NCBI GenBank assembly: GCA_017511805.1
Contig: JAFWJA010000021.1
Coordinates: forward strand, 65,956-129,955
Direction: 5' to 3'
Length of the DNA stretch: 64,000 nucleotides
DNA from: Bacilli bacterium
GTDB taxonomy: Bacteria > Bacillota_I > Bacilli_A > RF39 > UBA660
A model generated the notes under the pieces. The model searched no databases, was not told where the DNA came from, and worked only from the letters and a program-made list of their open reading frames with translations. Both the position numbers and the translations under genes were made by a program. Shown piece by piece: positions 12 through 28,428 of this stretch. Position 1 is the stretch's first letter, and the number at the start of each line of letters is the position of its first letter.

Positions 12-548
12 ATGAAAAGACAAATTAGAGTTAATGGAGAAAAGCATACAGCAACATATCACTATATGAATAAGTATCAATATGTTCCTTTATGGATTTT
101 AGTAAAAGTTCTTTCATTTGGGCTTATTAATGAGTTATATGGAATATTAAAACCAGAAGATAAGGAAGAAATAGCTAGTTTTTATAAAATGAGTTCAGAA
201 GATTTAAAAGTATATCTTCAGTTACTTGCAAATTATAGAAATTTATGCGCACATGAAGATATAGTATATGATCATAGGACTCAAACATTTATTAGTGATA
301 CAAAGTATCATAAATTATTAAATATTGAACAAAATGAGTTAGGTGAATATATTCAAGGTAAAAATGATTTGTTTGCGGTTGTTATTATATTTAAACAAAT
401 GCTAGATAAAAATAGATTTAAAGATTTTATGAAGGAAATAAAGAATAGTTTTGATGAGTTTGATTTGAATGTTGATATTATAACAAATGAAAACTTATTA
501 AAGAGAATGGGATTCCCTAAAAATTATATGGATATTAAAGATTTATAG
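12..548 (+). CDS. Abi_2 (AbiD/AbiF-like) abortive-infection family protein, probably 5'-truncated by the window edge
   Basis: The translation carries the YRNLCAHED motif typical of the Abi_2 family (YRNxxAH). The reading frame is open back to nt 3, and the motif lies only about 75 aa from the first Met, so the N-terminal part is probably off-window. Confidence 0.6.
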   Translation: MKRQIRVNGEKHTATYHYMNKYQYVPLWILVKVLSFGLINELYGILKPEDKEEIASFYKMSSEDLKVYLQLLANYRNLCAHEDIVYDHRTQTFISDTKYHKLLNIEQNELGEYIQGKNDLFAVVIIFKQMLDKNRFKDFMKEIKNSFDEFDLNVDIITNENLLKRMGFPKNYMDIKDL

Positions 549-557
549 GAGGATTTT

Positions 558-11667: not shown

Positions 11668-12201
11668 TTATTTATAATATTCTAAATCTTCATTACTATA
11701 TAATACTAAATCTATATTAATATCTTTATCTTTAATAAAATCTTTAATCATATTAGGTACAAATTTACCTACTTCAACATGACCAAAACCATAAAAACCA
11801 GTACCTAAAGATGGAATAAGTATATTCTTATACTTATTCTTTTCTATTTCATTAAACATATTATTATAAGTATTCTTTAATATATCTAATGAATCATCAC
11901 TATCCCATTTTTTAGGACCTTGTACAAACATAATATCCATATTTAAATTAAAACCAGGTGTTATTCTAATATCACCAGTTTTCATTAAATTATCTCTATT
12001 AAAATCTTTAGATAAATAATTAATATTAAACTCTTTTTGAGTATACTCCTCCAGCTTATCTACATCAGCTTTCTTGAAAATAGCTCCGGAAACTCCAGAT
12101 CCTGATAACATAGCAGGATTAGAGGGATTAACTATTAAGTCATGACCTTTTAATATTTTATCACTAGTTATATCACCAACTAGTATTCTAAAATTACCCA
12201 T
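11668..12201 (-). CDS. Macro-domain protein (ADP-ribose binding / O-acetyl-ADP-ribose deacetylase-like)
   Basis: ILVGDITS..DLIVNPSNP..GSGVSGAIFKKA..ILIPSLGTGFYGF are macro-domain signature segments. RBS GGAGGT; extended -10 TGTTATAAT about 25 nt upstream. Confidence 0.75.
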   Translation of the reverse strand: MGNFRILVGDITSDKILKGHDLIVNPSNPAMLSGSGVSGAIFKKADVDKLEEYTQKEFNINYLSKDFNRDNLMKTGDIRITPGFNLNMDIMFVQGPKKWDSDDSLDILKNTYNNMFNEIEKNKYKNILIPSLGTGFYGFGHVEVGKFVPNMIKDFIKDKDINIDLVLYSNEDLEYYK

Positions 12202-12311
12202 ATAATTACCTCCAGTACAATAAACATTATAACATATATAGAAAGACAGGGGATATCCGGAGCCACATATGAAGACTAGTACAGGATGATAGAGAGGGGA
12301 ATAGGTTTTAC

Positions 12312-13049
12312 TTATTTTAGTTCTATAATTTTATCATATAAACATTTGAATTTATCAAATGTATCTAAATCATTCTTATGATAATGTCCGAAAAACCATT
12401 CTTTGAATTTTGTTTTATTCTTTATTTCTTCCAAATAATCTGTTAATTCGTTGATAGGATAATACTTATTAAAATAATTTTGAATAGTAGTGGGTGCACA
12501 ATGGGTGATAACATAATCTACTTCATAATTATTCTTTTTAAGATTGTTTAAACCATTTTTATATTCATTAATTGTAGGCATTTCTAAGTCCCACCAATTA
12601 ATATTTCTGATTCTATAAGAAGATTTATTGCTTTTTAATTCTTCAATTTTATTAATATCATCTATATTTATAACACCATCTTTAATGTCATGCGAAGCAG
12701 CTCCTCCAAAAACAAATATTTTTCTCCCTTCTATTTCATAGATTTCTCCTCTCATTAAATGGAATATGGATGAATTTATTTTATGAACTTTACCTCCATG
12801 CCATTCTATAACAGGATATTTATTTAATCTATTAAAGTTTTCATGATTACCATCCACAAATAGAGTAGTGAACTTCATTTTAGATAGCTCTTTTAAGTTT
12901 ATTTTCTCTTGTCTAGGTATTTTCTTATCATGCCAGATTCCCCCAAAGTCACCACAAATAATTACATAATCTTCTTTTGTTAGAATAGAGAAGTTCTCTT
13001 TTTTAAATCTACTAAAATCTCCATGACAATCTCCAGTTATATAGATCAT
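12312..13049 (-). CDS. Calcineurin-like metallophosphoesterase
   Basis: Metal-ligand motifs GDCHGD, GDFGG, GNHEN and GHYH in canonical order. Confidence 0.75.
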   Translation of the reverse strand: MIYITGDCHGDFSRFKKENFSILTKEDYVIICGDFGGIWHDKKIPRQEKINLKELSKMKFTTLFVDGNHENFNRLNKYPVIEWHGGKVHKINSSIFHLMRGEIYEIEGRKIFVFGGAASHDIKDGVINIDDINKIEELKSNKSSYRIRNINWWDLEMPTINEYKNGLNNLKKNNYEVDYVITHCAPTTIQNYFNKYYPINELTDYLEEIKNKTKFKEWFFGHYHKNDLDTFDKFKCLYDKIIELK

Positions 13050-13151
13050 GTTATCACCTCCGTCTTATTTATTTAAAATTCTATCTATATCCCTTTCTAC
13101 TTTCAAATTAATTCTATTTAATTTTTCTATGTACCTAGTATTTTTGTTATA

Positions 13152-14507
13152 TCACACTTCAACATTAACCAAATTACTCTCCCAGTTATTTATTACATTT
13201 AGTATATTCTTATCTTCTATTTCATTATTATATTTCCCTAAAGCCATTGTAACACTATTATCTATTACTTCTATTGTTACTAATGATTTATCAGGTTTAT
13301 CTTTTTCTCTTAAGAAATAAACTTGGCTATTAGAATATAGTATATTGTCATAATAAGTTCTTACACAATTATGCATTTGAAAACTTTCTTCTATTAAATC
13401 ATTTAAATTATGTGGTGGATAAATAATATATTTATCATCTTCATATTTATTAAAATCTAACATATCCCCCACAGCATTTAATTTATTATTAATATCTTTA
13501 TTATTTAATAAAAGATATTTTGTATATACTTCATTATATGCTTTATTAAAATCCTTTGGAAAAAGCACATTATTATCATCTAAATCTAATTTAATTTCTA
13601 AACAAAAAGAATAATAATCTAAATAGGAAAATAATAGTGATTCATCTTTTAAAAATAAATCCCCTAATTTATCAAATACTTTTTTAATAGTTTTTTTATC
13701 CATTTTAGAATCATTTATTAGATCAATGTAATAACCAATAAGTTTTAATAATTTTAAATTATCTGTTTTATATATTTTTAATGCCTTATACATATCACTA
13801 TCAATATCATTTTCCACCATAAATTTATAATATTTCTTTTCTAAACCAAATGTATCTATAAAATTACCTTTAAATTTTATTTCTTCTGGAAATGATAACG
13901 CTAATGAATATAGTTTTAAATTAACTAAATATTCAAATTCTTTATGATATAAAGGATTATATGTAATATCTAATATATTAATTTTTTTAGTAGCAAATAT
14001 ATCTTTTAACATCCATAATTTTGTATATTTATACATACTAGTATTTTTTAATTCTTCTAAATTATCTGTATATAAATAACCACTTGGAATTTCAGTGAAA
14101 AAGTAATAAAAATCCCATTCATCATTATCTTCCACACCTTGAGTTTTATACTTATTATAATACTTATATGAACATGATTTATTACTAATGGTGTCTATTA
14201 TTAAATTATCATAAACTCTAAATCTATTTATTAAAGAAATACTGTTTTTCATATACGAATTAATACAGAAATCACTTTTATAATTTATATTAGATCTATA
14301 AATATTTATATAAACTTCATCACATGAAACTACATCAAAATAGTAATAATTAAAAGAAGCACTTGTCTTTTTAATATCATTATCTTCACCTTTTACCATA
14401 TTTATTTCATCAAAATCTATATGTTTGTTATAATTACTACAATACTTATTATCATTCATATCAATATATTTATTCTTCATTTGACTTTTTATATAATCAA
14501 AAACCAT
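13152..14507 (-). CDS. PcfJ-like domain protein (C-terminal), large N-terminal region of unknown function
   Basis: C-terminal QMHNCVRTYYDNILYSNSQVYFLRE resembles the PcfJ-like core (hNCV..Y...h.....hhFLR). Confidence 0.5.
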   Translation of the reverse strand: MVFDYIKSQMKNKYIDMNDNKYCSNYNKHIDFDEINMVKGEDNDIKKTSASFNYYYFDVVSCDEVYINIYRSNINYKSDFCINSYMKNSISLINRFRVYDNLIIDTISNKSCSYKYYNKYKTQGVEDNDEWDFYYFFTEIPSGYLYTDNLEELKNTSMYKYTKLWMLKDIFATKKINILDITYNPLYHKEFEYLVNLKLYSLALSFPEEIKFKGNFIDTFGLEKKYYKFMVENDIDSDMYKALKIYKTDNLKLLKLIGYYIDLINDSKMDKKTIKKVFDKLGDLFLKDESLLFSYLDYYSFCLEIKLDLDDNNVLFPKDFNKAYNEVYTKYLLLNNKDINNKLNAVGDMLDFNKYEDDKYIIYPPHNLNDLIEESFQMHNCVRTYYDNILYSNSQVYFLREKDKPDKSLVTIEVIDNSVTMALGKYNNEIEDKNILNVINNWESNLVNVEV

Positions 14508-14985: not shown

Positions 14986-16092
14986 ATGGCAGAGAATAGA
15001 AAATTTTTATCAGAACAGATTATTACATATATAGGTAACAAAAGATCGTTATTAGACTTTATTGGAAAATCAGTAAAACTGGTAAAAAAAGAACTTGGTA
15101 AAGACAAACTAAAGACAGCAGATTTATTTTCAGGATCGGGAATTGTAGCAAGATATTTGAAACAGTATAGTACAGATCTATATGTAAATGATTTGGAGAA
15201 TTATGCTAGTACAATAAATAAGTGTTACTTGACTAATAAATCTAGTATTGATAAGAAAGAATTAAATAGGTGGTATAAATATTTAAAAAGTAATCTTTCA
15301 GATGATAATTTAAAATCTGGTTTTATCACTGAATTATATAGTCCTAAAGATGATAGTGATATAAAAGAGGGTGAAAGAGTTTTCTACAAGTCTAGAAATG
15401 CCAAATACATAGATACTGAGCGTAAATTAATAAAAAGAATTCCAAATAAGTATAAAAACTTGTTTCTTGGTCCACTTTTATATGAAGCTTCTAATAAGAC
15501 TAATACATCTGGTGTCTTCAAAGGTTTTTACAAAAATTCTGATACTAATATAGGTCAATTTGGTGGAAACGGTAAAAATGCATTAAAAAGAATATTGTCT
15601 GATATTGAAGTAAAAAAACCAGTATTGAGTAATTACGATTGCAATGTGAAAGTATATCAAGAGGATACAGTAATACTCGCAAAAAAACTACCTGAAATGG
15701 ATCTTGTTTATTTAGATCCACCTTATAATCAACATCCTTATGGGTCAAATTACTTTATGTTGAACTTAATTAATGATTATAAAAAACCTACAAAAATAAG
15801 TAAGGTATCAGGCATTCCAGAGAATTGGAATAAAAGTGATTTTAATAAAAAATCATCGTCCTTAGCAATGATGAATTCAATTTGTAAAGATTTAAAAACA
15901 AAATATATATTGATTTCATTTAATTCTGAGGGGTTTATTACGTATAACGAAATGGTAAAAATGTTGTCTAAATATGGAACTGTAAGAGTATTTGACAAAA
16001 AATATAATGCTTTTAAAGCTAGTAGAAATCTTAATAAAAGAGATTTATATGTAGATGAGTATTTATTCTTATTAAAGAAGGAGAGTGAATAA
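14986..16092 (+). CDS. D12-class (Dam-like) N6-adenine DNA methyltransferase
   Basis: N-terminal YIGNKRSLLDFI (Dam Y/W-x-G-x-K), motif I DLFSGSG and motif IV DPPYN. Extended -10 TGCTATAAT upstream. Confidence 0.8.
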   Translation: MAENRKFLSEQIITYIGNKRSLLDFIGKSVKLVKKELGKDKLKTADLFSGSGIVARYLKQYSTDLYVNDLENYASTINKCYLTNKSSIDKKELNRWYKYLKSNLSDDNLKSGFITELYSPKDDSDIKEGERVFYKSRNAKYIDTERKLIKRIPNKYKNLFLGPLLYEASNKTNTSGVFKGFYKNSDTNIGQFGGNGKNALKRILSDIEVKKPVLSNYDCNVKVYQEDTVILAKKLPEMDLVYLDPPYNQHPYGSNYFMLNLINDYKKPTKISKVSGIPENWNKSDFNKKSSSLAMMNSICKDLKTKYILISFNSEGFITYNEMVKMLSKYGTVRVFDKKYNAFKASRNLNKRDLYVDEYLFLLKKESE

Positions 16093-16094
16093 TA

Positions 16095-16496
16095 ATGCTG
16101 GGAGATGTATTAAAATCAAGAATCAAAGAATTATCTAAAGCATCAACAAAAAAAGTTGGAGATGATGCTTTTTGGGTAATTCTTAGAAATATTGCAAAAG
16201 ATGAGATAATAGAATTATATCCTAAAAAGGTTGATAGCGATACTATAGTACCTATTTATTTCGAAATATTATCATCAAATGAAACTTATATTCCTAAATA
16301 TTTTAAGGAAAAGTTAGATTCAAATCATCAAGAAAGATATAGAGTAATAAATAGGAATTTGTTTACAAGCAACGCATTTCATCCTGATGGCTTAGCAAAT
16401 CAGGAGGGAATTACTGCATATAAGGATTTTAATGAGAGTAAAAAAGGTGAAAGAATAGTATATCAAGGAGATGTTAATTATGCTAATAAACAATAA
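16095..16496 (+). CDS. Hypothetical 133-aa protein in the MTase/GmrSD-like operon
   Basis: Starts 3 nt after the MTase stop and overlaps the next gene by 26 nt. No recognisable motif. Confidence 0.4.
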   Translation: MLGDVLKSRIKELSKASTKKVGDDAFWVILRNIAKDEIIELYPKKVDSDTIVPIYFEILSSNETYIPKYFKEKLDSNHQERYRVINRNLFTSNAFHPDGLANQEGITAYKDFNESKKGERIVYQGDVNYANKQ

Positions 16497-18057
16497 AGAC
16501 GTGGATAACGATTATATTAATTTATATTCATTAAGTGATAAAAAAATAGGAATTCCAATTTTTCAAAGATTTTATGCATGGAAGGAAAATCATATTAAGA
16601 CACTATTAGAAGATATAACAAATGCAATTAACAGTGATAAGGAATTATATTTGTTAGATTTTATATATTATAAAGAAAATGGTAAGATAATGCTTGCGGA
16701 TGGCCAACAAAGAATAGTTACAATAAATCTATTAATCAAGGCAATAAATGAAAAAATAGAAGTGTTAAATGAATCCGTTGATCAAATAAAACCGTTTGAT
16801 ATAAGTTATGATATTAAAGAAAATGATGATAGTTATAATGAATCATATCACAATTATATAAAATCACCATTTAAGAATGTTTATACTTGCATTTCAAATT
16901 TTATTGATGTTAATGTTGATAATCTACAGAAAATACGAGAAATAATCACAAAAAGAATATTTATCTATTTTAAAAAATGTTCTAATGCAGATGATGCTTT
17001 TTCAATATTTACTCAAATAAATACTGGTGGGAAACCATTAACTAAGGAAGAAATAATAAAAACAGCATTAGATCAATATTCAAAAATATATGATGTTAAA
17101 ATTAATACACTAAATATTAAGGATCTTAGACAGGATGTGGTTAGTTATTATAAAATAGTCGAAGATAATTATTCTATTAACTTTGATCAGATGACTATAA
17201 TGACATTCTTTAAAGAATATGTTACTAAAGACAAAGAAAGTTTTATAAAATTTAAAGAAGCAATAAACTCGTTAGATAAAATTAAGAATAATCCTTTAAG
17301 ATACATTATTAAATATATTAATAGACCAATTTTATTTGATGTAATGAATGTTTTGACTATGAAAGGTATAGATTTGAAGCTTAATAGAAAGTATGTAGAG
17401 AAAGTAATGTTACCACTATGCTTTGCATCTATAACAATGTCTTTTAAATTAAGTAATCCCTCTTTAATTAATCATTTAACAACAGATTTGATTAAAAAAA
17501 TAAAAAAAGATGAAAGTGTAAATGATTTAGAACTTTATATTGCGGAATTTATAGATGATAATTCTGCTGGATTTAAAATGACAAATGAAGAATTCTCTAA
17601 AGCATTAGGAGAACACAATAATGGTTATAGAAATATTAAAAAAGCATTAATGATAATGGATGTAATATATAGAAATACTGCTGGAGAATTAAATGTTGAG
17701 TCTATTAATTTAGAACATATTTATCCACAGAAACCAGATACTGAATGGGCAACAAAAGGGTGGCCAACAAGCCATGATGAACAAATTGAATTAATTGATA
17801 ATATAGGTAATTATTTGTTATTAAATGAAGCAATAAACAAGCGAGTACAGAATAAATATATAACATACAAAGTTCCAGAATATAATAACATTATTCCAAA
17901 AGATCTTATGTTACAAACAGAAATTAATACAGTGAATTTTGATGACTTTGAAACCAAAAAAGAAGAGTATATTTATGAAAGACAAGTAGAAATAGCTAAA
18001 AAAATTAGAACGGGTTTACCATTTGGTCAAAAACTAATTGTAAGTCAAAGAGTATAA
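16471..18057 (+). CDS. DUF262 (ParB/GmrS-like NTPase) + DUF1524 (GmrD/His-Me-like nuclease) fusion; GmrSD/SspE/BrxU-type defence nuclease
   Basis: IGIPIFQRFYAW and LADGQQRIVT are the DUF262 hallmarks (I-P-x-Y-Q-R, DGQQR). C-terminal LEHIYPQKP..GNYLLLNEAINKR is the DUF1524 hallmark. Confidence 0.8.
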   Translation: MLIMLINNKDVDNDYINLYSLSDKKIGIPIFQRFYAWKENHIKTLLEDITNAINSDKELYLLDFIYYKENGKIMLADGQQRIVTINLLIKAINEKIEVLNESVDQIKPFDISYDIKENDDSYNESYHNYIKSPFKNVYTCISNFIDVNVDNLQKIREIITKRIFIYFKKCSNADDAFSIFTQINTGGKPLTKEEIIKTALDQYSKIYDVKINTLNIKDLRQDVVSYYKIVEDNYSINFDQMTIMTFFKEYVTKDKESFIKFKEAINSLDKIKNNPLRYIIKYINRPILFDVMNVLTMKGIDLKLNRKYVEKVMLPLCFASITMSFKLSNPSLINHLTTDLIKKIKKDESVNDLELYIAEFIDDNSAGFKMTNEEFSKALGEHNNGYRNIKKALMIMDVIYRNTAGELNVESINLEHIYPQKPDTEWATKGWPTSHDEQIELIDNIGNYLLLNEAINKRVQNKYITYKVPEYNNIIPKDLMLQTEINTVNFDDFETKKEEYIYERQVEIAKKIRTGLPFGQKLIVSQRV

Positions 18058-18072
18058 TTTTAAAAAAATAAG

Positions 18073-18108
18073 AAGCAAAATTAATTGCTTCCTTTTTCTT
18101 CCTTTTTT
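18073..18108 (+). terminator. Intrinsic terminator
   Basis: Stem gaagcaa-attaa-ttgcttc, then ctttttcttcctttttt. Confidence 0.7.
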
Positions 18109-18160
18109 ATAGTGCCTCTGATTTGCCGTTCGCTACATAAAAACATACACTTTTTAAACA

Positions 18161-18212
18161 TACCGATAACGGTATAAAACATATTGACAAATACTACCGA
18201 TAACGGTATAAT
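18161..18212 (+). promoter_or_regulatory. Consensus sigma-A promoter (TTGACA-N17-TATAAT) with two identical 16-bp operator-like repeats TACCGATAACGGTATA
   Basis: -35 TTGACA at 18184-18189, a 17-nt spacer, and -10 TATAAT at 18207-18212. The repeat occurs at 18161-18176 and 18195-18210; the second copy overlaps the spacer and -10. Each repeat is a 14-bp imperfect dyad (TACCGAT/AACGGTA). Confidence 0.7.
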
Positions 18213-18231
18213 ATAAACAGAGGTGAAAATT

Positions 18232-19158
18232 ATGGAATTTATGACTACAAAAGAAGCTGTGCAAAAATGGAATATTAGTGAAAGAAGAATAAGACAATTA
18301 TTACAAGATGGAAGAATTGAAGGTGCTGTTAAAGTAGGTAATAATTGGAATATTCCTATTAATGCTAATAAACCAGCTGATAAAAGAAGTGTTAAACTAG
18401 ATAATACTGAATTTAAATTTGATTTACCCGATAATTATTTTGATAAAGTTGATAAATTAAATAAAGAATTAAATTCAAAAAGACCTATATCAAAAGAAAC
18501 TTTAAAATCTTTAAAAGAATCTATTAATTTAGAGTGGACTTATAATAGTAACGGTATAGAAGGAAACACATTAACTTTAAGAGAAACACAAATTGTTTTA
18601 GAAGGTATTACTGTTGGAGGTAAATCTTTAAAAGAACATTTAGAGGTTATAAATCATGAACAAGCAATATTATTCTTAGATGATCTTATTAAAGATAAAG
18701 AACCTGTAACAGAATGGAATATAAAAAATATTCATCAATTAGTATTAAAAGAAATAGATGATGATAACGCTGGTAAATATAGAGATGAAAATGTAAAAAT
18801 AAAAGGTGCTACACATATTCCACCAGATTATTTAATAGTTCCAGAATTAATGGAAAAATTAATTATTAATTTTGAAGATTGGAAGAAATATCATCCGATT
18901 ATTAGAGCAGCATTATTACATGGTGAATTAGTTAAGATACATCCATTTGTTGATGGTAATGGTAGAACTTCAAGATTAGTTATGAACTTATCTTTAATGA
19001 ATAGTGGATATCTTCCAGTAATTGTAAAAAAAGAAAAAAGATTAGAATATTATAATGCTTTAGATAAAGCACATACTACTGGAGATTATACAGACTTTGT
19101 TAAATTAGTTAATAAATTAGAAATTGAAATGTTAAATAAATATCTAGAATTGTTGTAG
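18232..19158 (+). CDS. Fic-family protein with N-terminal MerR/excisionase-type HTH
   Basis: Canonical Fic motif HPFVDGNGRTSR. N-terminal inhibitory-helix-like motif SNGIEGN (S-x-x-x-E-G). N-terminal MTTKEAVQKWNISERRIRQLLQDGRIEG is an HTH. Likely start is ATG 18232 with RBS GAGGTG; the ORF track starts at GTG 18223. Confidence 0.8.
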   Translation: MEFMTTKEAVQKWNISERRIRQLLQDGRIEGAVKVGNNWNIPINANKPADKRSVKLDNTEFKFDLPDNYFDKVDKLNKELNSKRPISKETLKSLKESINLEWTYNSNGIEGNTLTLRETQIVLEGITVGGKSLKEHLEVINHEQAILFLDDLIKDKEPVTEWNIKNIHQLVLKEIDDDNAGKYRDENVKIKGATHIPPDYLIVPELMEKLIINFEDWKKYHPIIRAALLHGELVKIHPFVDGNGRTSRLVMNLSLMNSGYLPVIVKKEKRLEYYNALDKAHTTGDYTDFVKLVNKLEIEMLNKYLELL

Positions 19159-19168
19159 GAGGTATTAT

Positions 19169-21511
19169 ATGACAAGTAGAATTTTAAATGATTCCAGTAT
19201 TTGGGATTTACATATCCATACGTGCAATAGTCCAAAATCATCCGGTGAATTTCAGAAAATGGACATAGATAAGTATATCAATACATTATTAGATGTATTT
19301 AAGGATTATCCAGATTTGTCTTTAATTTCTTTTACGGATCATAACATTATTTCTTATGATGTTTACAAAGCTTTCATAGATAGAAAAACTGATATTAATA
19401 TTATACCTGGAATCGAAATAGATGTTGATATTGATGGAATAAAAGATAGCAAGCATATGTTATTTTATTTTAATATTGATTTAGAAAAATTAGAAGATTT
19501 TTCTAAAAAAATAAATGACTATATGAATAATAGAAAAAGTGTTAAAATTGAAAATATTTTGGATTTCTTGATATCAAATAAAATAGAATTTATTATTAGT
19601 CCACATGCTTTTAAACAAGGAAAACGTGGAATTGAATATGATTGGAATGATGAAGATTCCGCTGGTTCAAATGCTCATAAGTTTATGGATCAATTGTTTT
19701 GTTTTTGGGAAGCGTCTGGACATTCTGACATAGCTAATGCTATAGAATTTTTAAGACGAATTGATAAAGAAGATATAATATCTGTTATTTCTTTTTCAGA
19801 TTCATCAGATGAAAAAAAATTAAGAGAATATTTATCAAATCCTCCTCAATACTTTAAATCATTACCAAATTATAAAGGATTGCAATTAGCTGGTACAGAT
19901 TGTAGAAGAATTTTAAAAGAAAAGAAATGCATTAATGAAGATAATACTGGTAATTTTATTGGTAGTGTTTTTATAAATGGTGAAGAAATAAAATTATCAG
20001 ATAGATTAAATACAATAGTTGGTGGTAGAGGTAGTGGGAAATCTTTATTATTGGACAATATGGCACTGTCTATGGATAGTTCAATAAGAGAAAATAAAGT
20101 TCTTAAAGATGATAGAATTGATTTTTTAGATACAATTAATATTCAATTAAAAAACTTAGATGGAACAATTATAGATTTAGATAACAAAAAAATTGATTTT
20201 TTTGATCAATCATATGTTTCGAAAATTTTTACTTCAAATAACATAAGTGAAGAAATAGAAACATATTTCGCTGATGAATTTAAAAACATTGAAAATATAG
20301 ATAAAGAATACGAACTACAACTTATAAAATCAAAATATGAGGAGTACTTAAAAAAGGATATTATTACTAAACCTACAAGTAATATTTCAAATTTTGTTGG
20401 TAAGTATAAAAAAATAGATGAAAAATCCGTTGGATTAAAGATTAGAAAAACTGATATACATACTTTAAATAAAATAGATTACAGTATCGATGAAGCAATA
20501 AAGTATGCCAATAATGGTTGTAAACTTATTCCTAAAGATTTAAAAGGAAATAAAAATATAAACAATGCATTATTAAATTTTATAAAGGTAGTAACAGCAG
20601 AAGCACATGATTATAATAATGAACGAATAAAAGAAAACTTAGAGGATATTATTAAGGAAAAATGTTTGAGTCAAGATGAAGAAAAAAATAAAGAATTAAA
20701 AGTAAGAAATACTGAGGAAGAATTATTTGTTAATCATTTAAAATTTGAATGTGATCCATATGTTGAAAGAACAAATATTGTAAATTCTATTTTGAAATTA
20801 CAGGTAGATTATAAAGAAGAAAAAAATAAATATGATATAAAAGATGGAGTAGATGATAGTAAATTTAAATTTGAAAAAAAGATTATATTTGAAAGCCCTT
20901 TGCAATATTTTAGGAAAATGTGCGAGAAATATATTGGAGTAAAAGCTAAATCATATAGTGATAAAGAGCTATATCATGCATTTATATATGAAATAAATGA
21001 TCTTATTAAAGATTCAAAAACTGTATCTGATTTTATCAGCGACTTAAAAAGTTTGAAAGATTATGAAGTGAAGTATGAAAGTAATATTCTTTATGGCAAA
21101 GATATTGAAAATCTAGAAAATATAGTCAAGATGTCACCAGGAACTCAAACAAATATTTTAATGGAATACATAGTATCAAAACAAACTGAAATTCCACTAT
21201 TGATTGATCAACCAGAAGATAATATAGATAATGAAACTATATATACTAAATTAACAGAATGGTTTGAAAAATTAAAATTAAAAAGACAAGTTATTGTAGT
21301 CACTCATGATGCAAATATTGTTATAAATGCAGATGCTGAAAATGTAATTATAGCTAACAAAAATGAGAAAAATGAATTTACTTATACTTATGGGGCTTTA
21401 GAGTATAATGGAATTCTTGAAAGAATCTCAGTTATTTTAGACGGTGGTGTTGAGGCTGTAGAAAGAAGGTTAAAGAAATATGGAAGAAAAAAAGATAATA
21501 GTAACAATTGA
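19169..21511 (+). CDS. Fusion protein: N-terminal PHP phosphoesterase domain + split SMC/RecN-type ABC ATPase
   Basis: PHP motifs WDLHIHTCNS, FTDHN, PGIEID and ISPHAF. RecF/RecN-like N-terminal ATPase entry FINGEEIKLSDRLNTIVGGRGSGKSLL (Walker A). C-terminal signature-like MSPGTQT, Walker B LLIDQPEDNID and H-loop VVTHDANIV, separated by about 330 aa of K/E-rich probable coiled coil. Starts 10 nt after the Fic stop. Confidence 0.6.
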   Translation: MTSRILNDSSIWDLHIHTCNSPKSSGEFQKMDIDKYINTLLDVFKDYPDLSLISFTDHNIISYDVYKAFIDRKTDINIIPGIEIDVDIDGIKDSKHMLFYFNIDLEKLEDFSKKINDYMNNRKSVKIENILDFLISNKIEFIISPHAFKQGKRGIEYDWNDEDSAGSNAHKFMDQLFCFWEASGHSDIANAIEFLRRIDKEDIISVISFSDSSDEKKLREYLSNPPQYFKSLPNYKGLQLAGTDCRRILKEKKCINEDNTGNFIGSVFINGEEIKLSDRLNTIVGGRGSGKSLLLDNMALSMDSSIRENKVLKDDRIDFLDTINIQLKNLDGTIIDLDNKKIDFFDQSYVSKIFTSNNISEEIETYFADEFKNIENIDKEYELQLIKSKYEEYLKKDIITKPTSNISNFVGKYKKIDEKSVGLKIRKTDIHTLNKIDYSIDEAIKYANNGCKLIPKDLKGNKNINNALLNFIKVVTAEAHDYNNERIKENLEDIIKEKCLSQDEEKNKELKVRNTEEELFVNHLKFECDPYVERTNIVNSILKLQVDYKEEKNKYDIKDGVDDSKFKFEKKIIFESPLQYFRKMCEKYIGVKAKSYSDKELYHAFIYEINDLIKDSKTVSDFISDLKSLKDYEVKYESNILYGKDIENLENIVKMSPGTQTNILMEYIVSKQTEIPLLIDQPEDNIDNETIYTKLTEWFEKLKLKRQVIVVTHDANIVINADAENVIIANKNEKNEFTYTYGALEYNGILERISVILDGGVEAVERRLKKYGRKKDNSNN

Positions 21512-21764
21512 TAAAACAAAAGTTGAATTACAATCAAATAATCCTAACATTAAGAATCTAGTTGAAAAAATATTAGATCAAGATGAAAAGTTTGATTTTA
21601 ATAATATAGAAATAGAATGTTCTGATGATAATTTTGATAAAGATAGTTTTAAAAAAATTATAGTTGATTCAGTGTTTGAATTTAAAAAACAGTTAATTAT
21701 CGAAGAAAAAGATAATAATGATAAAATTGAAAAAATAGAAAAAGAAAAGAAAAATAATGAATAA
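21480..21764 (+). CDS. Small K/E-rich hypothetical protein overlapping the 3' end of the PHP-ATPase gene
   Basis: 94-aa ORF with a 32-nt overlap to the upstream gene and an intrinsic terminator immediately after it. Confidence 0.4.
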   Translation: MEEKKIIVTIDKTKVELQSNNPNIKNLVEKILDQDEKFDFNNIEIECSDDNFDKDSFKKIIVDSVFEFKKQLIIEEKDNNDKIEKIEKEKKNNE

Positions 21765-21766
21765 AA

Positions 21767-21806
21767 AAGAGCATATATAGCTACGTAACCTATATATGCT
21801 TTTCTT
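21767..21806 (+). terminator. Intrinsic terminator of the Fic/PHP-ATPase operon
   Basis: Stem gcatatata (x2 inverted) with an 11-nt loop, followed by ttttctt. Confidence 0.6.
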
Positions 21807-22073
21807 ATGTCTGCACAGTTTTTGCACAACAATTTAGTTAAATTGTTGTGTAAAAAATTATATTTTTTTAAACTGTTTATACTATAAAGCGTTGATTTTA
21901 AAGGGTTTGTATTAATATGATTAACCCAACTTTTTGGGCCCCTGAAGAGAGCAACTCTAGTCTTTTTATCCACAAGATTTATTATAATATTTTTATAGAT
22001 ATAATAATTTTACTTTTTTGATAGCATAAATTATATAATAAGTGGTATAATGAAAAATAAAGGCAGTGTATTT

Positions 22074-24416
22074 ATGAATATGAAAGTATTATTAAAGAAA
22101 TTTGTAAATATAGTTAGAAAACATTATATTATTATAATGTTCTTTTTGCTATTTTTTTGTACAAGTACAAAGGCATATGCTTTGAGTTTTGAAATAGAGG
22201 ATGTTTCTATTAGTGATAAGAGTTCTACTGTTAGTACTGATACTATTAGTTATACTAGTAATGAAATTAGTAGTAATGTTACATTTAATTCAATAGATGA
22301 TTATGTTGTTTATGATATAAAGATAAAGAATAACGAAGATAAGTTGTTTAAAATAGAATCAATTAGTGATAATACTACTAATGATAATTTAGTTATTGGG
22401 TATGAAAAAGAGTCTGAGATAAAAGCTAAAAGTAGTTCTACTATTAGGTTAATTATGACTTATAAGAATAAACTTGTTAATAAGAATATTACATTAGATA
22501 ATTTAGAAATCACAATTAATTTTGTTGATGAGGGTGGAGAAGATAGTACTATAATAATTAATCCTGTTACAGGAGATAATATAGTTAGTTATTTAGTTTT
22601 ATTAATTATTTCATTAGTTGGTATAGGTTTTATTATAACTAATAAGAGATTAAAGCATTTAAAAATAGGAATTATTATTTTGGCTATATGTGTTATAAGT
22701 ATTCCTTTTGTTACTTTTGCGATTGAAGATTATAAATTTAGTTTTAAATTTAGTGATGTTGTTATTAATGGGGAGTTTGAGGAATATGATATTACGCTAG
22801 TAGATCAAGGGTCAAGCACATCTTTTAAAAGAACTTATGGAGAGGTATTAGGTACATTACCTAGTGCTTTTAAAGTAGGACATACATTTGATGGTTGGTA
22901 TAGTAATAATGTTTTAGTTAATGATAATACTGTTGTTAAGGGTCCTATGACAATAGAATCTAGATTTATTCCTAATAAACATACATTAACTATTAATGAT
23001 AGTGAATATGTTGAAACAGATACTCCTAGTGGAGAATATGATTATGGAACTGAAATAACTTTAAAGGCAAAGAATAGATTAGGCTATACTTTTGTTAAAT
23101 GGTCTAATGATAATACTGATACAGAGATAACATTTACTATTACTAGTGATATAGAAATTGGTCCTATTTATAGTCAAGATGTTTATACTATTATTTTTGA
23201 TTCTAAAGGTGGATCAGATGTTAGTAATAAAACTGGAACATATAATCAAGCATTAGGAACTTTAGAAAATCCTACTAAGCATAAATATAATTTTGATGGT
23301 TGGTATACTTTAGAAGATGGTGGAGAAAAAATAACATCTGATACTAAGATAACAGGTAATACTACTTATTATGCTCATTGGGATCCTATTGGATTTAATA
23401 CAGTATTTTCTCATGAAGGAGCATGTACATTTAATGCATATGATAATATAACTGGAGATGAATGTTCTGAATATTGGGATACTAATTATATAAATACTGG
23501 TATTGCTTTATTTAGTGAGGAAAATAATGGTAAAGATTTTGAGGCAGGATTTACTATAGTATCATATAATTCTGGTGATCAAACTAGTGAAAAGAATCAA
23601 GTATTTATGAGTGATAAAAAAGAAACTGGTGGAACTGCTATTGTACCTGGTATAGTAGCAAGAAGAAGTTCACAACCTAGTACTGCTATAGATATATCAT
23701 TTGGTAAAAATGGTAATAAAACAGGTGTTGATTTAACTACTACAATAAATACAATTAAGATGTTTAGAATTGATGGTAATATATATTATTCTATAAATGA
23801 TGGAGAAAAGGTTTTATTAAATAGTAATATTAGTGATTCAGATGTATTTAATGTACCTTTAACATTTGGTGCAGGATATACAGTTGATGGTTCAATATTA
23901 AGACCTGTTAAAGCTACTTTATCAAATATGTATGTAAAACTAGGTTATGTAGATTTAGATGACTATTATAAGATTACATACGATGGAACTGATGGATCTT
24001 TAGTAACTAATAGTAAATCTATATTAAAAGGTGATAAAATTGGTAATTTCCCTACTGGTACTAAAAATAAAAGTTATATAGCAGGATGGTCTTTAGAAAA
24101 TGGTAGCACTGATTATATTAATTCAAATTATGTACCAGATAGTGATATAACTTTATATGCTACATGGAAAAAGTCTATTGAAGTATTAAATGTTTCTAAT
24201 ACAAGCATTTCATTAAATGTAGGTGAAACAGAAAGTATAGTTATTACTAATCCAACTGAAGTAGAAGAAGAGTACTATTTTACTTCCAGTGATAACTCAA
24301 AAGCATCTGTTGATACAAATGGAGTTATAACTGCGAAAGCATCTGGTTCTGTAAATATATATTTGAGAGGTAGAGCATCAGGTAAATCAAAGACAATTAG
24401 AGTAACAGTTAATTAA
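22074..24416 (+). CDS. Cell-surface protein: signal peptide, about 130-aa N-terminal domain, internal NPVTGD sorting signal + TM + basic stretch, internal signal-peptide-like segment, InlB B-repeat (Listeria-Bacteroides repeat) domains, C-terminal Big_2 domain
   Basis: The ATG at 22050 lies inside the extended -10 TGGTATAAT, so the start is probably ATG 22074 (RBS AAAGG). Repeats GHTFDGWY..., GYTFVKWS... and YNFDGWY...YYAHW / LYATW are of the InlB B-repeat type. C-terminal SLNVGETESIVITN...SVDTNGVITAKASGSVNIY is Big_2-like. Confidence 0.65.
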   Translation: MNMKVLLKKFVNIVRKHYIIIMFFLLFFCTSTKAYALSFEIEDVSISDKSSTVSTDTISYTSNEISSNVTFNSIDDYVVYDIKIKNNEDKLFKIESISDNTTNDNLVIGYEKESEIKAKSSSTIRLIMTYKNKLVNKNITLDNLEITINFVDEGGEDSTIIINPVTGDNIVSYLVLLIISLVGIGFIITNKRLKHLKIGIIILAICVISIPFVTFAIEDYKFSFKFSDVVINGEFEEYDITLVDQGSSTSFKRTYGEVLGTLPSAFKVGHTFDGWYSNNVLVNDNTVVKGPMTIESRFIPNKHTLTINDSEYVETDTPSGEYDYGTEITLKAKNRLGYTFVKWSNDNTDTEITFTITSDIEIGPIYSQDVYTIIFDSKGGSDVSNKTGTYNQALGTLENPTKHKYNFDGWYTLEDGGEKITSDTKITGNTTYYAHWDPIGFNTVFSHEGACTFNAYDNITGDECSEYWDTNYINTGIALFSEENNGKDFEAGFTIVSYNSGDQTSEKNQVFMSDKKETGGTAIVPGIVARRSSQPSTAIDISFGKNGNKTGVDLTTTINTIKMFRIDGNIYYSINDGEKVLLNSNISDSDVFNVPLTFGAGYTVDGSILRPVKATLSNMYVKLGYVDLDDYYKITYDGTDGSLVTNSKSILKGDKIGNFPTGTKNKSYIAGWSLENGSTDYINSNYVPDSDITLYATWKKSIEVLNVSNTSISLNVGETESIVITNPTEVEEEYYFTSSDNSKASVDTNGVITAKASGSVNIYLRGRASGKSKTIRVTVN

Positions 24417-24446
24417 AAAGAAGTTAAAAATAACTTCTTTTTTTTG
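24417..24446 (+). terminator. Intrinsic terminator
   Basis: Stem aaagaagtt-aaaaat-aacttcttt, then a T-run. Confidence 0.75.
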
Positions 24447-24509
24447 TTGTTGAAAGACATTTTAATTTTTAGTATAATTAAATTAGATTGTATGATAGGA
24501 GGTGAGGGT

Positions 24510-24893
24510 ATGAAGAGAGTATTAAGTTTATTAATGGTATTTGTTGCTGTATTTAGTGTAACTATGTTAGTTGGTTGTGGAAGTAAAGCTGATTTAAGTA
24601 AATATGCTGGTACATATGAAGGACAATATACTAAGTTAGTTGGTGATGATACTAAGGATACATCTGATAAGTTCTCAGTTGAATTAAAAGAAGATGGTAC
24701 TGGTAGTTCTACTAGAGATGGTGCTACTTATGATATAACTTGGTCTATGGATGGAGATAAGTTTGAAATGACTGAGAAGTTTGCTGGTATGAAAATTGAA
24801 TATACTGGTACTTTAAAGAATGGTGAATTAAATATATTTAATGGACCAGAAGATGATGATTGGACTTATAATTACGTTTATAAAAAGAAATAA
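24510..24893 (+). CDS. Small lipoprotein
   Basis: Signal peptide with lipobox LVGCGSK. RBS GGAGGTGAGGG. Start ATG 24510 is in frame with the longer ORF that begins at 24444. Confidence 0.65.
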   Translation: MKRVLSLLMVFVAVFSVTMLVGCGSKADLSKYAGTYEGQYTKLVGDDTKDTSDKFSVELKEDGTGSSTRDGATYDITWSMDGDKFEMTEKFAGMKIEYTGTLKNGELNIFNGPEDDDWTYNYVYKKK

Positions 24894-24898
24894 TATAT

Positions 24899-24927
24899 AA
24901 CTAATGCTTAGCATTAGTTTTTTTTTG
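24899..24927 (+). terminator. Intrinsic terminator
   Basis: Stem aactaatgc-tta-gcattagtt plus T9. Confidence 0.8.
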
Positions 24928-25047
24928 GTAATAATTAGTAAAGTAATTTTAAAAAACTTGAGTAAAATAAGAATATAGTAGTTTTAGTATTGTTTAAATA
25001 TTGAAATTATGTTATGATTAATTAAGATAGTAGAGGTGTTTGTAGTA

Positions 25048-28000
25048 ATGGTAAAAAGGAAGAATAAGCTATCGATTCTTTTTATTTTTACAGTTATGAT
25101 TTCCGTATTATTTATAGGGAAAGTTTTTGCGTCTTCAAACATCATTAAACTTACAAACATCCAAATAAAAGATCAAACTTCGGGAGTAGATGCGAGTATA
25201 GATAGTTATAATGCGAATACTGTTAATACTAGTAATGATTACCATGCGGTTAATAATTATGTAGAGTATATTTTAACAATATTAAATACTGATTCTAAAC
25301 CATATTCAATTAAGTCTATTAGTGATACTAATACTAATCCGAATATTAAATATGATTATTATGATTATAAAGATAAGATTTTAAAACCTAATTCTACAGT
25401 ACAAATATTAATTAGAGAAACTTATAATACAGAGAATGCTGATTTAACTAATAGAAGTTCTTCAAATAGTGTTAAGTTCTTATTTAATCTGGTTGATGAA
25501 GATGGAGTAGAGATATATTATGATGGTGATAATCCTACTACTGGTGATCAGATTATGAAATATGTTATTATATTTGGAATATCAATAGTAGCGTTAATTG
25601 CTTTAATATTTATAATCTGGAAATTTAAGAAGGGTAAAAAGTTAATGGTTCTTCTACTATTTGGATTATTAATGATACCTGGATTTGTTAGAGCAGAAGA
25701 TGTAGAAGCTACTATAACATTTAATAATAATATCGATTTATTAGATAAAGTAAAAGTAACATTTAATTATAACGGAGTAACTAGAGAGTCTATTATACAA
25801 TACGATAGCAGTGTAACAGAGCCTAGTGTTCCTAATAAGAATGGATATATATTCTTAGGTTGGTTCAATAATGGAAACTTATTTGATTTTAGTACAAGAT
25901 TAACTAGTGATATAACACTTGAAGCTGATTACTTAAAAGAAAGTTATACAATAACATATGACTTAGATGGCGGTAATGCTTCTAATCCTGGTGTATATAA
26001 AGTAACTGAATTACCGATAGCACTTAATAATCCAGTTAAAGATGGATATACATTTATAGGATGGACTGGTAGTAATGGTACAACACCTCAAAAAGACTTA
26101 ACTATTACTAACAAGAGTGAAAATTTAAATTATAAAGCAAATTATACTATAAACACTTATACAATAGCTTATGAAGGATTAACTGAAGCAGAAATGACTA
26201 CTTTAAATAATCCAGATACTTATAATATAGAAGATACAATAACATTAAATAATCCAGCGAATAGATTAGATAATGATGGAGATCTAGCATATAGATTTAT
26301 AGGTTGGAAAAATGATACAAATGATGTTTCAAAAACAATTACTATAACTAATAATACTGGTGTTAAATCATATGAAGCTGTATGGTTACCAGTTGCACCT
26401 GATACTTACACAATTACTTATGAATTACATGATGGAACTATCGATGGTACTAATCCGTTAACTTTTAACAAGTTAACTCCAAGTTTTACCTTACTTAATC
26501 CTACAAAGAGAGGTTACTCATTTGATGGATGGATAGGGAGTAATGGTGATGTACCACAAACTAGTGTTACTATTAATCAAGGAACTAAACAAGATTTAGA
26601 GTTTGAAGCTATATTCACTAAAATAGATTATCCGATAGCATATGATCTAGATGGTGGATCAGTAGCAGTAGCTAATCCTGTTACTTATACAGTAACAGAT
26701 ACAGTTACATTAAATAATCCTACTAAGAGAGGATATAATTTCTTAGGATGGTCTGGTACAGATATAGAGGGAATGAGTACTAGTGTTACTATTCCAGTTA
26801 ATTCTATAGGAGAAAGATCATATAAAGCTAATTATGAAATAATAGAATATACAATTACTTATGATTTAGATGGAGGAGCAGTTACTGGTAATCCAACTAC
26901 TTATAAAGTTACAGATACAATTAATTTATTAGCACCTACTAAATTAGGACATATATTTACTGGTTGGACAGGTAGTAACGGACAAACACCTCAAACTAAT
27001 GTTACTATTACTAATTCAATAGGTAATTTAAGTTATACTGCTAATTATGAAGGTGGAGCATATTATGTTCATTTTGATAAGAATGATTCTTTAGCAACAG
27101 GTACTATGGAAGATGAACAAATGCAAGTAGATCTTTCTAAAGCATTAACATCAAATAAGTTCTATAAGAAAGATTATGTATTTGATGGATGGACTACAAA
27201 TCAAGATGGTACAGGTACTGTATATGCTGATGGTGAATCAGTTACTAATTTAGTTATGAGTGGTACTATTACACTATATGCTAAATGGAGACCTGTTAAG
27301 AAAGCTATATTTGATACAGGATCTAAAGTAAATATTAGAATGAAGACTTTATCTGGACAAAGTGGTGCCGCAACAGGAACTAATAATAGTATTATTAAAA
27401 AGGTTAAGTATGTGGATCCAGTACCACAAGATAAACAAATAACTGATAATATTATATCTAGTGCTGCTAGTCAGTATAAGGTATATATGTGGTATGATTC
27501 AGATGAAAAGATTATATATTATGGTAAAGAAGATGACGCAGATGAGATTTATTTAGGTAAAGATGGAGCATACATGTTCAATTACCTATATGAATGTACA
27601 GAAATAGATACTAACTTTAGAACAGATGATACACAAAACTTTACTCAAATGTTCTGGAGAGACGTTAATCTAGAAGTATTAGATGTTAGTCACTTTAAGA
27701 CAAATGAAGCGAAGAGTTTCTCTTCTATGTTTGGTGAGTGTGCTAAGATTCCATCATTTGATTTAAGTGGATGGGATGTTAGTGGTGCTAAAACATTTAC
27801 ATTTATGTTTAACCAATGTGCATCTATAACAGAGTTAGATTTAACTAATTGGGTTACAACAAGTGCAGAAACTATGAAGAATATGTTTAGTAGTACTACT
27901 AACTTAAGTACTTTAAAAATACCTAATTTTGTAACATCAAATGTTACAGATATGCAAAAGATGTTTGATAACATGCCTAGCATACAATCTTTAGATCTTA

Positions 28001-28407: not shown

Positions 28408-28428
28408 AAACTATAAAGGAGGACACTT

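Follow-up and report, generated by a model that had tools for sequence, protein, structure and literature searches.

Proteins in which an N-terminal PHP phosphoesterase is fused to a C-terminal ABC-type NTPase are known from bacterial defence. One of them, Ppl (PplA) of Escherichia coli, is presented in a 2026 review (PMC12904381) as a single-gene system encoding a 3'-5' exonuclease for single-stranded DNA, which is inhibited by nucleoside triphosphates (NTPs) bound on both the PHP and the NTPase domains and senses the 3'-OH ends produced by phage homing endonucleases. Class II Fic proteins of the SoFic type are a validated defence as well (PMC11514479). Here we describe an operon with a Fic gene and a PHP-ATPase gene in a 64,000-nucleotide (nt) stretch of DNA from a Bacilli bacterium (contig JAFWJA010000021.1; about 25% guanine plus cytosine, GC), to which we refer as the window. 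A gene for a helix-turn-helix (HTH)-Fic protein is followed by a gene for a PHP/ABC-ATPase fusion of 780 amino acids (aa) and by a small overlapping open reading frame (ORF) for an acidic protein (Table 1). Taking the best explanation as a whole, it is likely that window positions 18157-21959 form a single transcription unit built of two separable modules, and that the operon thus consists of a conserved HTH-Fic leader and a swappable two-gene cargo.

Comparison with other known systems helps to place both modules. Gabija unites an ABC ATPase with a nuclease, the activity being gated by nucleotides, and regulators of the BrxR/CapW type are DNA-binding WYL-domain proteins without enzymatic activity that come first in operons with variable defence content. 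The PHP-ATPase shares with Gabija the ABC ATPase plus nuclease design and occupies exactly the same slot behind the Fic leader. However, Gabija consists of an OLD-type ATPase-TOPRIM nuclease (GajA) and a UvrD helicase (GajB), so that TOPRIM stands against PHP and a helicase against a 94-aa acidic protein as the partner; there is no homology outside the ABC fold, and a PADLOC profile search with the 780-aa protein gave no match to GajA or GajB. SbcCD/Mre11-Rad50, RecN and PARIS AriA, with an ABC head carrying a coiled-coil insertion, provide the best structural match and the same nuclease-plus-ABC logic. The nuclease of the window protein differs from that of SbcCD/Mre11-Rad50 in being fused in cis and in being a PHP domain rather than a Mre11 calcineurin-like phosphoesterase. 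Further differences from this group are that the coiled coil of the window protein is short (helices at ~462-546), that its Walker B motif has Gln for Glu and that its gene is patchy and mobile rather than housekeeping. With BrxR/CapW, the likeness lies in a conserved DNA-binding protein that comes first, with variable defence genes downstream, and the difference in the nature of this leader, in which an HTH is joined to a Fic AMPylase domain that is apparently active.

The earlier note on this DNA, made from the letters alone, had taken the Fic gene, the PHP-ATPase gene and the small ORF as one three-gene system. It delimited the three ORFs correctly and all motifs that it quoted are found in the sequence, but the grouping was not upheld. 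In 39 fetched loci of the PHP-ATPase clade (Bacillota, Mollicutes, Erysipelotrichales, Lachnospiraceae, Collinsella, Atopobiaceae and Eggerthellaceae (Coriobacteriia)) the small ORF is present throughout, whereas the Fic gene adjoins the ATPase gene in only six (L001-L006), where the ATPase is 99% identical. Locus L028 encodes an ATPase of 62% identity, and its nucleotide sequence matches that of the window from 19150 onwards, directly past Fic. The Fic protein has many more close relatives than the ATPase; a single cluster at 96% identity comprises 1,227 members, and the gene order in contigs of this cluster is D12 methyltransferase (MTase), HNH, GmrSD, a 107-aa ORF, HTH-Fic, GajA and GajB.

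The borders of the exchanged segment were located by BLASTN. The left arm, window 18157-19162 with operators, promoter, Fic and ribosome-binding site (RBS), is 89-94% identical to locus L089 and the homology stops at 19162, and the right arm, 21753-21959, resembles what follows GajB in L089 (80% identity) and what follows the cassette in L001, with 80-88% identity over the two comparisons; between the arms lies the PHP-ATPase pair in the window and Gabija in L089. A metagenome scan with Fic yielded 80 loci with 78-98% identity to the window Fic, in which the cargo begins 13-18 nt past the Fic stop codon, and in 21 loci with different cargos the right arm is found 1.7-5.1 kilobases past Fic. 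Among the closest relatives of the leader, the conserved left and right arms enclose the cargo. Ten or more further cargo types follow the HTH-Fic leader in other operons (Table 1), and one upstream flank (HNH, GmrSD and the 107-aa ORF) bears four different cargos. The Fic gene, of which the 3' end reads …TTGTTGTAGGAGG, is followed by a gap of 10 nt in which no promoter for the cargo is present. The translational coupling of Fic and ATPase proposed before was slightly overstated in this respect, since co-transcription and close spacing stand but the genes do not overlap, the gap being served by a TAGGAGG RBS. For at least seven gene sets behind Fic no PADLOC or Pfam match was obtained, and by position these are candidate new defence genes. 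They include L128:7937-10027, L145:8097-9197, L157:7942-9300, L160:7941-8879, L106:5849-8650 and L166:7939-11142, with proteins of 551, 366, 452, 312, 933 and 1067 aa, as well as a recurrent pair of 206 and 256 aa (L098:3437-4057 and L104:8573-9343).

The neighbours of the PHP-ATPase clade in unrelated genomes point in the same direction, as they include Type III and Eco57I-like restriction-modification (R-M) systems, Gabija, Abi_2, Schlafen and Dnd. Near-identical ATPase copies occur in different genomic contexts, and the flanking genes differ at almost every locus. The candidate anti-phage role and the defence-island context that had been suggested for this operon are supported by these defence-rich, variable neighbourhoods and by the swaps with Gabija and other systems. 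Because of the allelic exchange with known systems between conserved arms and the defence-rich variable neighbourhoods, the positional evidence that the PHP-ATPase pair would be a defence system is very strong.

That the 780-aa protein joins a PHP domain to an ABC ATPase of the RecN/SMC type, as had been read from its motifs, was borne out by profiles, structure prediction and conservation. The NCBIfam model TrlF (NF045780) matches with E 2e-71 and 241.8 bits, the best stretch being residues 374-772, followed by the 'Spaf_1101 family' (E 4e-30) and Ppl (NF042955; E 1e-21, 76.2 bits, residues 639-769 only). With PADLOC, Ppl matches the C-terminus (E 2e-20), PDC-M49A residues 13-299 (E 1.8e-10) and a second PDC-M49A model residues 13-739 (E 2.7e-5). 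An AlphaFold model built on 87 homologs has a mean predicted local distance difference test score (pLDDT) of 84.4 and a predicted template modelling score (pTM) of 0.72, with long helices at residues 462-546. When the model was compared with the PDB by Foldseek, its C-terminal two-thirds matched the heads of RecN, Rad50, SMC, RecF and PARIS AriA (E 3e-6 to 5e-4, with RecN, Rad50 and SMC at 3e-6 to 1e-4) and its N-terminus the PHP domains of RNase AM (7ug9, E 1.5e-4, probability 1.0), Pol III alpha and PolC. A PDB sequence search gave marginal Rad50/ABC matches only, and no Ppl structure was among them. In the 87 homologs, which extend down to 36% identity, the PHP-type residues D13, H15, H17, D57, H58, E83, D85, H96, H146 and D211 are invariant, and so are the ABC motifs (Walker A, Q347, S656-P-G and H713).

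The Walker B motif, listed in the earlier note as LLIDQPEDNID, is not of the ordinary kind. An invariant Gln follows the Walker B Asp (D680-Q681-P-E-D), at the position that aligns to the catalytic Glu of Rad50, and the same Gln occurs in the LIDQPEDN motif of all 40 TrlF relatives checked. Replacement of Glu by Gln at this position of ABC ATPases is the classical hydrolysis-deficient, nucleotide-trapping substitution. The ABC heads of the clade and of TrlF would more likely be nucleotide-binding switches or sensors than motors, since the catalytic Glu is replaced in this way.

The small ORF, described before as acidic and as overlapping the ATPase gene by 32 nt, is a real conserved gene. Its product has an isoelectric point (pI) of 4.75, and an acidic ORF of ~88-110 aa overlaps the end of the ATPase gene in a different frame in all 39 clade loci, with products of pI 4.1-5.5 that share the motifs 'S-[DN]-x-P-[DN]-[IL]…L[VI]' and 'FD…F' in AT-rich and GC-rich genomes alike. 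A full HMMER scan of 1.84 billion representatives gave ~121 partner clusters, nearly all of them standalone proteins of 85-112 aa. The signals for its translation are embedded in codons of the ATPase gene: the two Arg codons of RRLxKYG supply the Shine-Dalgarno (SD) sequence, AGGAG or AGAAGG, and the start codon lies inside the Tyr-Gly codons (tATGg) of the C-terminal KYG in 28 of 30 unique junctions, while the remaining two end in KYE and have, by inspection, the ATG at the same place. Therefore, both proteins would be made together. The conserved unit is one of two genes, PHP-ATPase and small partner. The pairwise identities of ATPase and partner correlate (r = 0.88), and the partner evolves faster, mean identity being 27% for the partner, 40% for the ATPase and 24% for the middle/coiled-coil region of the latter. 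A model of the partner (pLDDT 77.5) consists of a beta-hairpin, a helix, a strand and a C-terminal helix of 40 residues. Two more distant loci have similar arrangements. L062 (9977-12632) encodes a PHP-ATPase of 785 aa that is 24% identical, with an overlapping acidic ORF of 104 aa and the KYG junction retained, and L124 (7942-10705) encodes an 853-aa PHP-ATPase with an overlapping acidic ORF of 72 aa without evident similarity to the window partner. Comparison of these sequences suggests that the partners of short PHP-ATPase clades are recurrent or very fast-evolving.

By its profile matches the window protein is placed in the Ppl/TrlF superfamily, in a shorter sister clade. A scan of one genome per species gave at least 572 loci that encode relatives. 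Relatives of 860-1000 aa, from Bacteroidota, Bacillota, Proteobacteria and other phyla, reach 478-572 bits and exceed the curated TrlF cut-off (350 bits; for Ppl it is 1000 bits and for SoFic, NF046030, 550 bits), whereas the ~780-aa clade scores 241-256 bits (241 and 256 for other members) and stays under it. TrlF is nevertheless the closest profile, and its members share the WDLHIHT N-terminus, a GGxxSGKS Walker A, LIDQPEDN with Gln and the C-terminal KYG; they end in '…REEKYGF', and they differ in their length and in that an acidic overlapping ORF is present in none of 38 loci. Ppl resembles the window protein in the order of its PHP and NTPase domains and in its defence context. However, the alignment is limited to the C-terminal ~130 residues, the window protein is ~100 aa shorter, and Ppl is described as a single-gene system whereas the window clade is always paired with a coupled small acidic protein. 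The PADLOC candidate PDC-M49 (component A) resembles the window protein over the PHP region, but the matches are weak and partial, and a comparison of 87 homologs of the small partner with the PDC-M49 models gave no match. A literature search gave nothing relevant on PDC-M49 and nothing useful on an ABC-ATPase classification that mentions PHP.

TrlF genes are found on 1,116 plasmid records, 805 of which are conjugative. Lactococcus lactis pNP40, a classical phage-resistance plasmid of Lactococcus, carries a canonical TrlF-family gene (NC_010901.1 12404-14944) beside abortive-infection (Abi) genes and directly after a DUF2130 gene, and a Klebsiella plasmid (L087) likewise has one beside Abi-family genes; both plasmids are conjugative. 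No accessible paper was found on TrlF or on the phenotype of the pNP40 gene, and the papers on lactococcal plasmid defence are silent on it. Searches of phages and viral contigs gave distant TrlF-like relatives only and no sign of a mainly phage-borne clade.

The leader was proposed to be a class II Fic protein with an N-terminal HTH and an inhibitory motif, and this was confirmed by Pfam Fic (83.6 bits, cut-off 24), by a weak match to HTH_17 and by alignment with FICD, its best relative in the PDB (1.7e-39), with the inhibitory motif aligned. Its start is assigned to ATG 18232 (the earliest possible one in the open frame is GTG 18223) because the homologs have 308 aa and an AGAGGTG SD precedes it at 18219-18225. 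PADLOC gave matches to PDC-S04 (E 1e-35) and SoFic (E 6e-34), while the score with the NCBIfam SoFic model is below its cut-off (36.3 versus 550 bits). The motif HPF[VI]DGNGRxSR is retained in 78 of 81 leader homologs, and the HTH region is conserved as much as the core. With SoFic, PDC-S04 and FICD the leader shares the Fic fold, the HPFxDGNGRxxR motif and an inhibitory SxxxEG helix that lies N-terminal to the core in the same chain, and it differs from them in having an N-terminal HTH and its own operators and in heading a variable operon.

Of the 80 Fic loci, 77 have the promoter/operator block in front of the leader. When the 71 unique sequences from these 77 loci and the window are aligned, the half-sites, the -35 and the -10 are conserved at 90% or more, whereas the 4-nt spacer is free to vary, the pattern that is expected of an operator for a dimeric HTH protein. 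TACCG-N4-CGGTA occurs three times in the window versus zero expected. The third box, TACCGGAAACGGTA at 63086-63099, is probably coincidental, as it lies within coding sequence and not at a promoter; the ORF that holds it starts at 63043, runs off the window end and is amidase-like by eye. The HTH-Fic protein is probably a self-regulating leader. Between the promoter block and Fic, an optional 107-aa ORF without a family match is found in many other loci (for example L001:6738-7061; L089:5675-5998). Forms with and without it are both common, and the window form, without it (between 18231 and 18232), has the look of having lost the segment between two RBS/start sequences that resemble each other. 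A second, different Fic gene (281-304 aa), which is not built like the HTH leader, is present just past the terminator arm in L001 (11034-11879) and also in L109. In a divergent Fic group (L133, L143, L146, L151 and related loci) an HTH_36 protein and a large serine recombinase are encoded upstream and an Amidase_3-LysM protein and a cell-wall hydrolase downstream, which suggests that the unit lies in a prophage or integrative element there, and this may be a lysogenic-conversion region.

Table 1 Features of the operon and its upstream neighbours (window positions), and other loci in which each cargo type was found
Feature	Position or loci	Strand	Remarks
D12 N6-adenine MTase	14986-16092	+	Neighbouring module, outside operon
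133-aa ORF of MTase/GmrSD module	16095-16496	+	Neighbouring module
GmrSD type IV restriction enzyme	16471-18057	+	Neighbouring module
Intrinsic terminator of upstream MTase/GmrSD unit	18072-18101	+	Stem 18072-18091, then T-tract; left limit of operon
Promoter/operator block	18157-18231	+	Two operators, sigma-70 promoter, SD
Operator box 1, TACCGATAACGGTA	18161-18174	+	TACCG-N4-CGGTA
-35 TTGACA	18184-18189	+	17-nt spacing to TATAAT; 12/12 sigma-70 match
Operator box 2, second copy of TACCGATAACGGTA	18195-18208	+	Overlaps -10
-10 TATAAT	18207-18212	+	12/12 sigma-70 match
SD AGAGGTG of Fic	18219-18225	+	Leader
HTH-Fic leader gene	18232-19158	+	308 aa
N-terminal HTH of Fic	~18244-18357	+	Weak HTH_17
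Inhibitory motif SNGIEGN	18547-18567	+	Aligned with FICD TVAIEGN
Fic active-site motif HPFVDGNGRTSR	18940-18975	+	HxFx(D/E)GNGRxxR type
RBS TAGGAGG for cargo	19156-19162	+	End of conserved left arm; left recombination breakpoint
PHP/ABC-ATPase fusion gene	19169-21511	+	780 aa
PHP domain	19169-19948	+	Residues ~1-260; profile, model, fold matches
WDLHIHT	19202-19222	+	PHP motif; TDHN, GIEID, SPHAF also present
Walker A GGRGSGKS	20021-20044	+	Motif
Q-loop Q347	~20207-20209	+	Motif
Coiled-coil/middle region	Residues ~373-640	+	PHP/ABC-ATPase fusion
Signature SPGTQ	21134-21148	+	Motif
Walker B LLIDQPED (with Gln)	21197-21220	+	Longer motif LLIDQPEDNID 21197-21229
H-loop VVTHD	21296-21310	+	Motif
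C-terminal RRLKKYG	21464-21484	+	Motif
Translational-coupling signals	21464-21482	+	SD AGAAGG from Arg-Arg codons; small-ORF ATG 21480-21482 inside Tyr-Gly codons of KYG
Small acidic partner ORF	21480-21764	+	94 aa; other frame, 32-nt overlap with ATPase gene
Right arm	21753-21959	+	Terminator hairpins 21770-21800 and 21819-21856; right recombination breakpoint of cargo slot
PHP-ATPase pair cargo	L100, L103, L109, L001
Gabija cargo	L089, L097, L101, L114, L115, L121
853-aa PHP-ATPase variant cargo	L124, L152
Hachiman HamB cargo	L123
Dodola DolB cargo	L133, L169		E 6e-115
OLD/AriA-type ATPase-TOPRIM cargo	L108, L113, L120, L135, L155
ThsA-like SIR2 cargo	L143, L146
NERD-UvrD helicase cargo	L142, L144
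PDC-S53 cargo	L105
AAA_13/PDC-S06-like set cargo	L104, L107, L110, L112, L164

Several other explanations have to be weighed against that of a leader with exchangeable cargo. If the three genes formed one integrated system, Fic would be a functional component of it and all three genes would be required jointly; Fic might, for instance, AMPylate the ATPase, the small protein or a target common to both. The genes do share a promoter and a terminator, the gap between Fic and ATPase is only 10 nt, and the three occur together in several flanking contexts (the window, L001-L006, L103 and L109). Against this, Fic is missing from the vicinity of the pair in 33 of the 39 clade loci, homology in L028 starts just past the Fic position, and the Fic leader, 94-98% identical, precedes Gabija, OLD-like, Hachiman and other cargos, which are self-sufficient elsewhere, so that an integrated three-gene system is quite unlikely. 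Fic could also be an independent single-gene defence of the SoFic type that stands upstream by chance and has no regulatory role, the operators being bound by another factor. Its good PADLOC matches to SoFic and PDC-S04 and its conserved catalytic and inhibitory motifs are in line with this, and a class II Fic protein can defend alone (PMC11514479). This reading is unlikely, however, given that the N-terminal HTH is conserved as much as the Fic core, that the operator/promoter block accompanies Fic in nearly all loci, that the cargo lacks a promoter in the gap, and that the unit has no second conserved DNA-binding protein, the 107-aa ORF being optional.

Other alternatives concern the cargo. 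The pair may be a toxin-antitoxin or addiction module, with the PHP-ATPase as a DNA-damaging toxin and the acidic protein as its antitoxin, that stabilises a mobile cassette or is selfish. Such a module would explain that the pairing is obligate, tightly coupled and stoichiometric, that the partner is small, acidic and fast-evolving, and that the cassette is mobile and occurs in varied genomic contexts. It is unlikely all the same, since the pair shares its slot with bona fide anti-phage systems and since the superfamily relative Ppl is an experimentally shown defence according to the review cited above (PMC12904381). This reading partly overlaps the explanation that we prefer, as toxin-antitoxin activity and abortive-infection defence are not mutually exclusive. 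A housekeeping paralog for DNA repair or chromosome maintenance, of the SbcCD/RecN type, that merely lies beside defence genes was named in the earlier note as the outcome that would speak against a defence role. The ABC head is indeed structurally closest to RecN, Rad50, SMC and RecF. Yet near-identical copies lie in different contexts with defence-rich, locus-specific flanks, the same site in related strains holds Gabija or other cargos instead, and relatives are abundant on conjugative plasmids; with such variable contexts and cargo replacement, a housekeeping function is effectively excluded and must be rated extremely improbable.

For the preferred explanation, that of an HTH-Fic leader with exchangeable cargo, a mechanism can be envisaged by analogy with the reported activity of Ppl and from sequence features; we infer DNA targeting, NTP gating, the role of the partner and operator binding in this manner. 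The strong sigma-70 promoter with its two flanking TACCG-N4-CGGTA operators would drive leader and cargo, and the HTH domain would bind the operators and autoregulate the whole operon, which is its most likely role. The Fic domain may be an effector of the SoFic type or a switch that responds to infection. The ABC heads would dimerise upon NTP binding, with the Walker B Gln slowing hydrolysis so that the head would act as a nucleotide-sensing switch rather than a motor. Once triggered at infection, the PHP domain would degrade phage DNA, and possibly host DNA, from 3' ends. The small protein would be a regulatory subunit, either an inhibitor or antitoxin-like clamp or a phage-sensing adaptor, and would probably act on the equally fast-evolving coiled-coil region of the ATPase. 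It is well possible, though somewhat short of probable, that the proposal holds in its full form: the HTH-Fic protein would be the dedicated leader of a hypervariable defence slot and a Fic-based counterpart of BrxR/CapW-type regulators, repressing via TACCG-N4-CGGTA, with an AMPylase domain that senses or responds to infection; recombination bounded by the 3' end of Fic and the conserved terminator arm would replace one cargo by another; and the PHP-ATPase and its partner would be a new two-component branch of Ppl/TrlF, in which the small protein would be the subunit that senses phage or inhibits.

A number of observations weigh against this explanation or parts of it. In a Pfam profile search the 780-aa protein gave no family at E <= 0.01, PHP and ABC models included, and it is below both curated cut-offs (241.8 versus 350 bits for TrlF, 76.2 versus 1000 bits for Ppl). 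The homology to Ppl considered in the earlier note therefore stands as relatedness at the superfamily level and not as family membership, and to transfer the Ppl mechanism to it is to extrapolate a long way. On a provisional mapping of residues to sites, the canonical PHP 'DxH' motif seems to lack its final His (FSDS), and the metal site may thus differ from the canonical one. Residues 147-183 (window 19607-19717) have a pLDDT below 50 despite several invariant residues (K149, Q150, W180 and E181, with R153 and W159 nearly so), and this segment may be a mobile lid or a loop that binds the partner or DNA. For the partner, neither Pfam nor PADLOC gave a family and the structure search gave no match to its fold, and the correlation of its identities with those of the ATPase mainly reflects co-inheritance rather than contact. 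Operator binding is attributed to HTH-Fic because this is the sole conserved DNA-binding protein of the unit. Finally, Fic is followed at some loci by a core gene, such as UvrC/MutL or a flavoprotein gene, and not by a defence gene; a Fic gene running straight into core genes looks like an empty slot.

The surroundings of the operon in the window are of interest as well. The MTase/GmrSD-like module reported directly upstream was recovered in profile searches, which confirmed the D12 MTase, the 133-aa ORF and GmrSD. At the equivalent position in sister loci, the MTase is larger and is accompanied by an HNH_2 protein and a GmrSD of 706 aa, so this module is also strain-variable. An exact look-up of the window GmrSD, by which cassette-free alleles of the site were sought, gave no record. 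Further upstream of the defence genes, at 11668-14507 on the minus strand, genes for a Macro-domain protein, a calcineurin-like metallophosphoesterase and a PcfJ-like protein stand in a row, and these may be remnants of conjugative or mobile elements or have anti-defence functions. Directly downstream of the operon, large repeat-rich predicted surface proteins (788, 1123 and 2151 aa) are encoded at 22050-34884, which are unrelated to the finding. We regard as spurious a minus-strand ORF of 131 aa (21578-21973) that overlaps both the small ORF and the terminator arm. For the 780-aa and 94-aa proteins, identical records exist from a 'Bacilli bacterium' metagenome-assembled genome.

PHP-ABC defence proteins (Ppl), the TrlF family, SoFic and defence hotspots are already known. 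What appears to be undescribed in the libraries and literature searched is the short clade with its obligate, codon-embedded acidic partner, the recurrence of acidic partners across three or more short clades and their absence from TrlF, and an HTH-Fic leader with conserved operators that heads a hypervariable defence slot. The clade is widespread and gut-associated, its homologs in Bacillota, Mollicutes and Coriobacteriia numbering in the hundreds, and it is never found without its small acidic partner, which provides a natural handle on how PHP-ABC nucleases stay off and get switched on. The Fic-headed slot, with conserved arms on both sides, is a simple and specific bait for the retrieval of cargo from metagenomes, and if the leader reading is true, the uncharacterised cargos in this slot are new defence systems. 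Autoregulation of immune operons by HTH-Fic proteins, if true, would be a new role for bacterial AMPylases.

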